The translations under genes and the position numbers were made by a program. From Eledone cirrhosa (Eukaryota), in NCBI GenBank assembly GCA_964016885.1, contig OZ024743.1, forward strand, positions 122,946,001 through 123,010,000: a stretch of 64,000 nt of DNA, in the 5' to 3' direction. Under the pieces are notes generated by a model. The model searched no databases, had not been told where the DNA came from, and was given only the letters and a program-made list of their open reading frames with translations. This document shows positions 2,350 to 20,939 of this stretch, piece by piece (within the stretch, counting starts at the first letter, position 1; each line of letters opens with the position of its first letter).

Positions 2350-3612
2350 AAAATACTTCGGAAAGTGGATTTTTGGCGATGTATGGAAGAAGTAAATAAT
2401 TCTATTTTTAAATTAATAGAGTTTTGACAGTTAATTATATTAACAAATGTCCTCGATACACAAATGACAGATTCTTGAGAAAGTCATATTTCGGTATGCA
2501 GGTGCTTTCGAAATCGTTCCCCAAGATATTGAATAGTCTATATTGTTGTCCTTTAAATTCCCAATTAGATGTGAGAGTGAAGTGGAAGATTTTTATCGGA
2601 CCTATTAAATGTATGTTTGTGGTTGTACCAACCTTCTTTGAATTTTGTAGAAGTGGCACCTATATAGTTAAATATTTTGTCTCTAGTTTTAACTGTGCAT
2701 TTATAAATTAAGTTTTTGTCTAAGCAATTATTTTGTACAGGGCAGTTTGATTCAATTCTACAGTTACATTTTCTGGAGTTGTTACTAGGAACGGTACTAT
2801 TATTATGAATATTGTTAATTGAAATATTATTATTGCTAGCTTGGTTTGTTTGGTTAGGGTTTAGATTTAAGTTTCTATTATTAATTCTATTTATATGTTG
2901 TGCTATTTTCATAGTAGTAGAGTAGGATAGTTTTATAGTGTGTCTGTTAAAAATAGAGTTGTATCTGTGGGTTTTAGGAAAATACTTATCTAGTGCTTTG
3001 AAAAATAGCTTTGCTAAAGGTGTTTTAACGCCTAATGAGAATGGGGGAGAGTTCCAAATAATATTTCTAGTTCTAGTATTTAAGTTGAATTGTTTATTAT
3101 TATTATAATGAATTCTAGGATGATTTATCATGTTATTGTTATCTAAGTAATTAATTTTATTCGTGTATCCTGCTCTATATAAAGCCTCATTGTAATATTC
3201 TGCCCTATCATCAAAAATATTTTTTATTAGTAGAGATGCGTGAAATCCGTTGCTGGACGCTATTGACAATAGTATTTTTTTATATTTCTAGGATGATTAG
3301 AATTAAAACTTACGTAATTTAGATGTTTATTAATTTTATGGAATAATATAGACCTGAGCTAAGGTTTAAGGTTACATCTAAGAAGTTAACGATTTTATAA
3401 TTATTCTCGATTTCTAAATTAAGGTTGTAGTTGTTGAAAAACTATATTATAGATTTCTTTTTCCTATTAATTTCACTATTGCTATGGTTTTCAATTAAAA
3501 GTAACATATCGTCGCGATATAAACCTCCGGCCATCTCTGGCATTTTTCTATGCAGTACATTATTAATAAATAATCCAACGAGGTCTGTTACTTGCGCCGA
3601 GTCAGATGATCC
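2350..3612 (-). pseudogene. PLE reverse transcriptase/GIY-YIG ORF remnant
   Basis: YRDD RT catalytic motif at ~3505-3520; IY...YIG motif at ~2655-2705; in-frame TAG at ~3443; frameshifts near 3335 and 2590. Confidence 0.9.
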
Positions 3613-15253: not shown

Positions 15254-15521
15254 AACCAGTAAGACCCCGACAGCTGAGCTCAAGCCGTTTCGACGGCTAA
15301 TTCTGTATTTGTAAAACTGTTATATATTGTATTTTGTCTGATGAAGGCATACCATGATTTAACTTGGTATCCTTGAAATATATATAATGAAATAAATATG
15401 GTTTTATAAATATAGTTTCCATTTATTAATATTGTATATCTACTCCAAATATTTGTCGAGTGCTTTATATCAGTTATAATAATATTTGCTTGTTGTATCC
15501 CAACAATTTAAATTGAACTTT

Positions 15522-19416: not shown

Positions 19417-19909
19417 TATATATATTATATATATATGTGTACGTATGTATATATACATATATATATATAAGATCCAAAATATAGATGAGCTACTTATAAT
19501 TTCATTGTTTACGCTCTGCATGCAGGAAATGCAAGTCTCCCGAGCAATTTAATTAATAAAGCCAGGAAAATGAGTCTACGGGAAATTAAATAGAATAATA
19601 TTGCAGCACAAATTAGGTCACGTATTAAAGACTATGTTGCATAAAAACCATCACTTTGCTTAGCAAAGTTTTAAAGGAATACTTTATTAACGTTGTAGAA
19701 AGAGGTTGATAATAATGGAATGAAAGTAGAGATAATATTTTCGGGTGCATTCTTTTGCATAACATTATTCATTCGCACACAAGGATTATCGAATTTGTAA
19801 ATATCACACCTTAGATTAAATAGGAATATATATATATGTAATCTGAGTTTTTCGAATATTAATAATAACATTAGATTCGTTTGCATATATTTTCACTAGC
19901 TCTGACAGT

Positions 19910-19989
19910 TTGGCAGGTGAACAGTGAGCTGTACTGATGAAGGGTGATACCCAGAAACATTAGTGTCTGCGGTTCTGTTCGCATGCCAA
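19910..19989 (+). ncRNA. Solitary full-size type I hammerhead ribozyme candidate
   Basis: ttggca-g-gt-gaacag-tg-agctgta-CTGATGA-a gggt gat accc a-GAAAC a ttag t GTC-tgcggtt-ctgttc-gc-a-tgccaa. The core is complete with a GUC triplet, a 3-bp stem III and a ~21-bp bulged stem I. There is an A-A mismatch at the base of stem II. Confidence 0.8.
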
Positions 19990-20939
19990 CACAAGAGCAA
20001 GAATGAAGTGTTCATTCTACTGACATGGCTATAAAATTGAGGCTTGTTTGCAATGTTATTATTAATATTCGAAAAACTCAGATTAGATTTATTGTATTCA
20101 GCCATGTAGAGCGAAATTATCTTTTTTATATATATGTATGTATAGTTATATATAAATATTATCCAGTTACAAATATGAAATTAGCTCGATGTAAAATAAC
20201 AAGTAAAATACAGAGCCGAAATAGAATGTAAATGACAATCAAAGAGTGTTTAGACTTCCAAACATTTAATCACTGACGATTGTGTCATCCTAACACAAGG
20301 TCGGTTTCATCGGAGTTGATAACAAAAGTGAAACACAAATATAAGTTCAAAACTTTGTCACAAGACCATTAGGAGGATACATAGTATGGGAGGCTAGATA
20401 AGCATAAGTATCAACATTTATATAAGGTAACAGAGGTGGAAAAATCATATGAAGAATAAGAGCAGATAAATGCAATAAAAATTAGGAGCAGATAAAAGCA
20501 ATAAAATAAAAAAAAATTAAAAAACATGCTGTTATACAGATAAATTAAGTACAGTGAAAAGCATATATCATAAGTAGTTAAGAAAGTTAATAAAATTAAT
20601 AAGAGAAGGCATGCAATTCAAATATAAATTTTAAAATACATCAGCAAAAATTAATTTTAAAAAATATATTTAAAAATACATTGTTTAAAAGTTTAGATGT
20701 TCGTGTAGCATGGTCAGGGATTACAGATAGGTGCAAGACTACATAATTCAGTCATAATAATAATTATTTTTCAAAACGTCCAAAGGAGCTAATGTAATGT
20801 TGAGTAAATAAATACAATCATCAAAGTAAAAAAACCCAATATAGGTGGAAGTATTATCAATTAGGCACTCAAGACACATCATCCACATAGTTGAATAGAG
20901 GGGACATAGTCATATGCCTATCTACTGTCTATCTACTTA

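Follow-up and report, generated by a model that had tools for sequence, protein, structure and literature searches.

The sequence at positions 19910-19989 (+) of a 64,000-nt stretch of Eledone cirrhosa DNA (the window) reads as a type I hammerhead ribozyme, and the locus raises the question of whether this is a lone ribozyme kept by its host or a piece of a mobile element whose RNA cuts itself. An initial annotation had described it as solitary, outside any Penelope context, and either a retrozyme-type monomer or a domesticated intronic ribozyme. We found that it is part of one 5'-truncated copy of a ~440-base genome repeat, here called family A. The reading we favor, with a probability of about 0.7, is that family A is a non-LTR retrozyme based on a tandem ~440-bp unit, which likely cuts its own RNA and is likely inserted by Penelope-like enzymes.

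The ribozyme core is complete, as the initial annotation had stated (CUGAUGA, GAAAC and GUC): CUGAUGA lies at 19934-19940, GAAA at 19954-19957, and GUC ends at 19967. Hammerhead rules place the cleavage site 3' of GUC (19967..19968, +), as had been predicted, and the 5' ends of sibling copies cluster just 3' of this site. The conserved positions C3-A9, G12-A15, U16 and H17 are present in the window copy and intact in 65 of 89 sampled copies. The annotated stem II (GGGU/ACCC), 3-bp stem III and ~21-bp stem I (21 bp in total in the window copy) were all seen in the sequence, and helix II opens with A10.1·A11.1 (19941..19953, +), being closed at its base by A19941·A19953. What changed is the layout of stem I: rather than 7 bp and a UG bulge, we find that a 6-bp helix I (19928-19933 with 19968-19973) and a 3x1 internal loop (19925-19927 opposite U19974), followed by the outer stem I, fits better, since 7 of 12 representatives have U·U in place of the seventh 'pair'; 6 bp is the canonical helix I size given in PMC4209133. 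Across these representatives, drawn from family A and two further families, B and C, pairing at helix I positions 1-6 holds in 70 of 72 cells, each position showing two to five pair types, and U1.7 and the closing G-C are invariant; judged by sequence comparison, helices I and II covary among the three families, and the covariation test supports all three helices, I-III. None of 200 shuffles folded as well as the hammerhead strand (z -3.4).

The A·A mismatch at the base of helix II, which the initial annotation had thought might reduce activity, is not damage to this copy but the family state: at 10.1-11.1, family A has A·A in 82 of 89 copies (unbiased sample), family B has U·U in 54 of 55, and the single family C copy has G-C. 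A paired 10.1-11.1 is expected of type I hammerheads, and family A is mispaired there. The position is described as the most conserved pair after 15.1-16.1, with only U·U reported as tolerated (PMC3088659), and since a U·U mismatch is known there in active natural hammerheads, we regard A·A as marking a variant. A fixed A·A was not described in the parts of the hammerhead literature examined. Rfam gave 0 matches at gathering score in the window, and a permissive search around the motif (E up to 10) brought up no hammerhead, so a covariance-model search, one of the checks proposed for the window copy, returned nothing.

Stem III had been set against the palindromic form of Penelope-like elements (PLEs), and here the annotation was half right: the 3-bp hairpin exists, yet the segment is also self-complementary (19957..19966, +) and can pair with a second hammerhead, the predicted 10-bp duplex having an energy of -8.8 kcal/mol vs +1.7 kcal/mol for the hairpin. 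The ribozyme may therefore act as a dimer. Self-complementarity is retained in 73 of 89 copies; by chance, 36 of 256 tetraloops would show it. It is absent in 2 of 3 older family A copies and recurs as a palindromic stem III in families B and C. The predicted lowest-energy fold of the monomer sequesters the core (-34.2 vs -27.5 kcal/mol), which makes a slow monomer likely, and the circular unit has a predicted fold of -154.9 vs -98 ± 5 kcal/mol for 30 shuffles. Once seven common variant sites are set aside, all of which fall outside the core, helix II and stem III, the core carries 26 changes vs 42 expected from base-matched sites, a weak effect (P 0.013).

BLAST to a real monomer showed that the element in the window comprises unit 182-442 in forward orientation and unit 356-416 inverted. 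The forward part is a 5'-truncated retrozyme monomer (19883..20125, +; unit 182-442 of 442; 91% to the monomer of locus L014) with a short internal deletion near 20051, as seen by alignment with siblings. The inverted copy of the 3' part of the unit (19824..19885, -; 92%) lacks a tail, as in a Penelope-type 5' inversion. The locus had been said to have neither a fold-back nor an immediate (TA)n flank; it has both, with arms at 19832-19872 and 20052-20092 that are 95% complementary, and a short TA run adjoining each end of the element. A tail of 28-33 nt (20093..20125, +), absent from the inverted end, precedes the 3' TA run. Because the copy begins at unit 182, the octamer (unit 140) and the PSE-like site (unit 156) are lost, and a TATA-like box (19886..19890, +), whose function is predicted, is the sole promoter element remaining; in full units the predicted transcription start would correspond to 19913..19915 (+), 56-58 nt 3' of the PSE-like site, the spacing found in host U1/U2 genes. 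Without its promoter, the window copy could be transcribed only by read-through from outside, and it is an ordinary copy, probably inert. Reverse copying of it went past the cut site and stopped 84 nt beyond. At unit position 375 (window about 20058), 9 examined loci of 89 (L101, L105, L111, L120, L121, L126, L134, L146 and L158) hold a ~190-bp tRNA-like SINE, which has 24 BLAST matches within the window; as the extent of 5' truncation differs among them and their target duplications range over 0-18 bp, we read them as independent insertions at an ATT-repeat hot spot.

Whether the ribozyme is solitary depends on the scale. The window holds one family A copy only (BLAST over 64 kb), as had been claimed, yet a search of the assembly (3.0 Gb, 1,796 contigs) found the 34-nt core, A·A included, 1,104 times without any difference, and 0 times for the reversed control; flanking 24-mers occurred 1,174 and 2,225 times. 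An initial DNA search had returned 1,301 candidates, 40 of which were scored. We sampled family A by anchoring on the upstream 24-mer, the first 100 matches listed on contig 1 giving 90 loci, of which 1 overlapping locus was left out; 4 of 93 anchors (<75% identity) were also left out, giving 89 copies. The exact core is present in 26 of these 89, from which we estimate about 3,800 family A copies in the genome. A chance motif is ruled out by the exact core copies against the empty control, and a degenerate single copy was rejected as well.

These numbers also bear on the suggestion that the ribozyme is a domesticated intronic one like amniote HH9/HH10. The window copy does have an intact core and only 3 differences from the column majority (median 6), and the family C copy resembles Rfam HH9; however, 10 of 89 siblings are equally close to the majority, near-identical copies exceed 1,000 and probably run into the thousands, and the window copy is truncated, promoterless, partly inverted and internally deleted. 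We therefore find domestication extremely improbable.

The other suggestion, a retrozyme-type monomer, held. Non-LTR retrozymes are described as non-coding tandem units of 150-450 bp with a GC content under 45-50% and a type I hammerhead each (PMC7229834; 10.64898/2026.07.22.740005). The family A unit is non-coding, with a tandem period of 425-442 bp and a GC content of 0.39, and sampled loci hold one (77), two (8) or no (4) same-strand hammerheads (n = 89), while locus L005 has three in tandem; as far as sequence can define it, family A is an animal non-LTR retrozyme. It also belongs to a class distinct from the other hammerheads of the window, as proposed, differing from the minimal pLTR-type Penelope hammerheads with TATATATA stem III at 15338 (+) and 60230 (-). 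We found no paper on family A in the literature searched; Repbase, Dfam or paper supplements may list it.

A loose pattern for the superfamily gave 28,473 matches (control 0), and the first 100 matches listed were 10 type A, 89 type B and 1 type C. Family B, first met in locus L079, has a period of 420-502 bp and is homologous to family A across the unit (alignment score 74 vs 2 ± 13 for 200 shuffles). Its loci (L079, L181-L230) form arrays of up to 7 units with U·U at 10.1-11.1, and one family B copy lies just past the window end (L390:3543-3964). The one family C copy seen (L211:4473-4544, -) has the canonical G10.1-C11.1 and aligns to the full Rfam HH9 model with a score of 37.8 bits (E 2e-6), which falls short of the gathering score of 52; for families A and B, no HH9 match was obtained at E up to 1. 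Separately, contigs of a second organism contained a 238-nt piece with 1 difference from L014:1331-1624 and a more divergent hammerhead variant, which may reflect a relative or contamination.

Contrary to the view that this ribozyme lies outside a Penelope context, family A has a Penelope-type insertion anatomy. Craig et al. (PMC8557442) describe as PLE marks 5' truncation, partial tandems, an inverted 5' copy, a one-sided tail and microsatellite targets. In our sample, an inverted segment was present in 57 of 89 loci and a head-to-tail unit junction in 36 of 89; 3' ends fell at unit 400-420 in 50 loci, at 430 or more in 29 and elsewhere in 10; and TA runs adjoined the 3' end in 74 of 89 and the 5' end in 57 of 89, against a background of 13%. 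Among inverted loci with both ends classifiable (n = 39), the ~30-nt tail was found at one end only in 36, at neither in 3 and at both in 0. A Penelope-like element is thus very probably the mobilizing partner. That partner is inferred, not found, since the PLE-like loci show no convincing similarity to the unit: 30 PLE loci gave no BLAST match and 5 longer loci short weak matches only, with no convincing pLTR homologue of the unit among these loci, all of one PLE family. PLE protein fragments occur in some flanks of the unit, no shared junction being seen, and no RT plus GIY-YIG ORF of the kind that an autonomous PLE would have was attached to the repeat; the unit joins itself, and we do not class it as an autonomous PLE.

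PLE-like sequences are abundant in this genome, an ORF remnant in the window itself (2568-3287, -) having 65,075 first-look candidates. Besides pLTRs that carry minimal hammerheads and include an inverted 5' copy, the longer copies show YxDD, a Cys-rich linker and a GIY-YIG-like motif. As these ORFs, which we take to be 'Neptune-like', had no match in Pfam or PDB, their PLE label rests on motifs and pLTR anatomy. In the PLE pLTR, a reverse octamer lies ~125 nt upstream of the element's own hammerhead in L386 (5229-5359) and L387; L388 has it with a single mismatch. This hints that the promoter logic may be related. In addition, window 19885-19909 and L387:3196-3220 share a 25-nt antisense match (84%, E 0.044), and an exact match of 15 nt falls inside the endonuclease-coding part of L386; this is probably chance.

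The same anatomy could be read as the unit being a solo pLTR of an unsampled autonomous Penelope-like element, given that every insertion mark is Penelope-type and that in Xenopus 24 of 57 retrozyme families are reported to be related to known elements, 21/22 of them PLEs (Li et al., 10.64898/2026.07.22.740005); the weak antisense match to the PLE ORF points the same way. Against this, the unit is joined to itself head to tail in the 36 loci mentioned above, and the sampled pLTRs (one family) carry a different, minimal hammerhead, with no BLAST match to the unit in 30 loci. We consider a solo pLTR quite improbable.

If family A RNA is cut before it is copied, the cut should be visible in where copies end. 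For this purpose, we anchored loci by the 24-mer downstream of the cut (the first 100 of 2,225 matches listed; 5 overlaps left out), which yielded 84 loci. Among 97 distinct 5' ends, 21 (19 once two fold-back artefacts are discounted) fell at +1..+9 from the cut, compared with 2 at -8..0 before it and 20 at +10..+45, and a scan test reached a +1..+9 peak of this size in 0 of 20,000 simulations. With another reference monomer, 21 of 89 clean 5' ends lay after the cut, 3 of them artefacts. Of the copies that reach the cut site, 21 of 71 stop there and about three quarters run past. The peak was not reproduced in a long-biased set from other contigs, which placed 0 of 54 ends at unit 267-275, with 2 at 266 and 2 at 276 (13 informative ends), and in family B the test gave no clear peak, with few loci and long arrays as a confounder. 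The step at +1 is what run-off from cut RNA would leave; had copying stalled at stem I, the ends should lie near +22. Because the 5' ends of copies cluster at the cut site, family A RNA likely cut itself in the cell.

An alternative is that the hammerhead is dead, A·A having killed its activity and the family having spread as a passive passenger. The strong conservation of 10.1-11.1, where nothing beyond U·U is reported as tolerated (PMC3088659), would fit this, as would the missing Rfam match and the core sequestered in the predicted fold; however, the number of 5' ends rises abruptly right at the cut site, the core has changed less than expected, and no common variant site falls in the core, helix II or stem III. 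A dead hammerhead is therefore very improbable, and we return to a self-cutting retrozyme.

Next, we examined how such an RNA might be transcribed. The octamer ATGCAAAT lies upstream of the ribozyme in families A, B and C and is also present in 3 of 6 distinct host U6 promoters (one with a mismatch) at -76 to -78; its distance to the TATA box is 46-48 nt in three host U6 promoters and 42-45 nt in 5 of 5 repeat representatives. In each of the 8 distinct host U1/U2 promoters, TCAG stands at -56 to -58 and is followed 25-28 nt later by a TATA-like box. A first promoter test, with ungapped U1/U2 and U6 matrices anchored at the start, did not succeed. A two-block matrix built post hoc recovered each host promoter in leave-one-out analysis (11.7-24.2) and, likewise post hoc, gave a top site 55 nt before GGCAG in the A monomer (16.5; 0 of 150 shuffles) and a score of 21.0 in an older A copy (2 of 150); it was not significant for B1 (21 of 150), B2 (38 of 150) or C (130 of 150). 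Neither a 3' box in the unit nor T-run avoidance before the unit end was significant. An architecture of PSE plus TATA/PSEB is described in PMC8406779. We consider it reasonably likely that full units are transcribed from an internal promoter of the snRNA type. As further observations, unit 74-172, which is missing from the window copy, holds a 33-bp sequence repeated three times, with words resembling the octamer and the PSE in every repeat; host U1, U2 and U6 genes lie in tandem arrays (L231-L294), the U6 promoter of L237 being interrupted by the tRNA-like SINE mentioned above; and U1/U2 genes share a 3' box-like word.

In the life cycle that we propose, the octamer, PSE-like site and TATA of full units would start RNA at the 5' edge of stem I. 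Tandem read-through would let two hammerheads meet; pairing between their stems III would aid the cut, and the A·A of helix II would slow it. Cleavage in such read-through RNA is probable, while we give dimer dependence even odds. The cut would remove a ~53-nt leader and free a unit-length RNA, and we lean slightly toward partial ligation of the cut monomers to circles. A Penelope RT/GIY-YIG protein would then begin copying at unit 409-442 in (TA)n targets, running off at the cut site on linear cut RNA and running on over circles or uncut multimers to produce partial tandems. Against this cycle stands the finding that two same-strand hammerheads are present in only 8 of the 89 insertions.

The same family and Penelope partner might also manage without circles, copying linear templates that are either the cut single-unit 3' product or mostly uncut read-through multimers. 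Such templates would suit the fixed 3' ends near the T-run at unit 434-442, the large share of copies that pass the cut site, and the slow ribozyme suggested by the mismatch and the competing fold. Uncut RNA started at the promoter should, however, leave 5' ends at the predicted start, where we found no cluster (1 end at unit 213-221); the T-run avoidance that this view would draw on is not significant, and circles have been shown for coral, mussel and axolotl retrozymes (PMC7229834). We judge a cycle without circles unlikely. Seven of 100 anchored 5' ends lie at unit 196-205 (window 19897-19906), 10-18 nt before the predicted start.

Similar to the animal non-LTR retrozymes described so far, family A has units of a few hundred bp with one type I hammerhead each, thousands of copies, mostly monomers, and PLEs alongside; it differs in fixing A·A at the base of helix II, and no pLTR homologue was found for it. 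Penelope marks and cut-site 5' ends, both measured here, were not found reported elsewhere in the literature consulted. Activity among predicted retrozymes varies, 8 of 9 from Xenopus being inactive in vitro according to Li et al. (10.64898/2026.07.22.740005), and the axolotl HHR_Amex2 monomer cleaves 22% in an hour, the dimer doing better (PMC7229834). HHR_Amex2 shares with family A a mismatch at the base of helix II (its U·U being the family B state) and dimer-assisted cleavage, predicted in our case, and newt satellite 2, reported to use an snRNA promoter (cited in PMC2220036), shares the promoter type predicted for family A. In comparison with these two, family A has a longer unit, a 10-nt self-complementary stem III, A·A, and dispersed, truncated copies in (TA)n. 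With EN+ PLEs it has in common 5' truncation, partial tandems, an inverted 5' copy, a one-sided tail of 30-40 bp and microsatellite targets (PMC8557442), as well as a hammerhead with palindromic helix III (PMC4209133). Unlike PLEs, it has no ORF, and its hammerhead has canonical helix I and II sizes and an internal loop in place of the minimal form; the PLE hammerheads of this genome are minimal and unrelated to it in sequence. Rfam Hammerhead_HH9 (RF02275) is matched over the full model by the family C copy, whereas A, B and C are repeats and not conserved single-copy intronic motifs.

For animal retrozymes, the mobilizing enzyme, the promoter and cleavage in the cell have so far been deduced for the most part rather than observed: Cervera and de la Pena (2020, PMC7229834) name PLEs as a strong candidate for mobilizing them, and Li et al. 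(10.64898/2026.07.22.740005) speak of limited evidence on the life cycle. Family A supplies three countable genomic signals, namely Penelope tails and inversions, cut-site 5' ends and a host snRNA-like promoter, and the significance rests on this family-level evidence, not on the window copy. The 5'-end test is applicable to any retrozyme family with an assembly. Families A and B would be overlooked by descriptors that allow no mispair at 10.1-11.1, so counts of animal hammerheads may be too low. Finally, and more tentatively, for we hold it somewhat less probable than its alternative, the superfamily of about 28,000 may amount to pirated snRNA genes, combining a captured octamer-PSE-TATA promoter that would start RNA at the ribozyme, a hammerhead deliberately weakened by A·A or U·U at 10.1-11.1 and dependent on dimers, which would trim off the leader to free RNA of unit length, and Penelope reinsertion. 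If this were true, the genome would record both the in vivo cut and the mobilizing machinery, the first sequence-level proof of an animal retrozyme life cycle.
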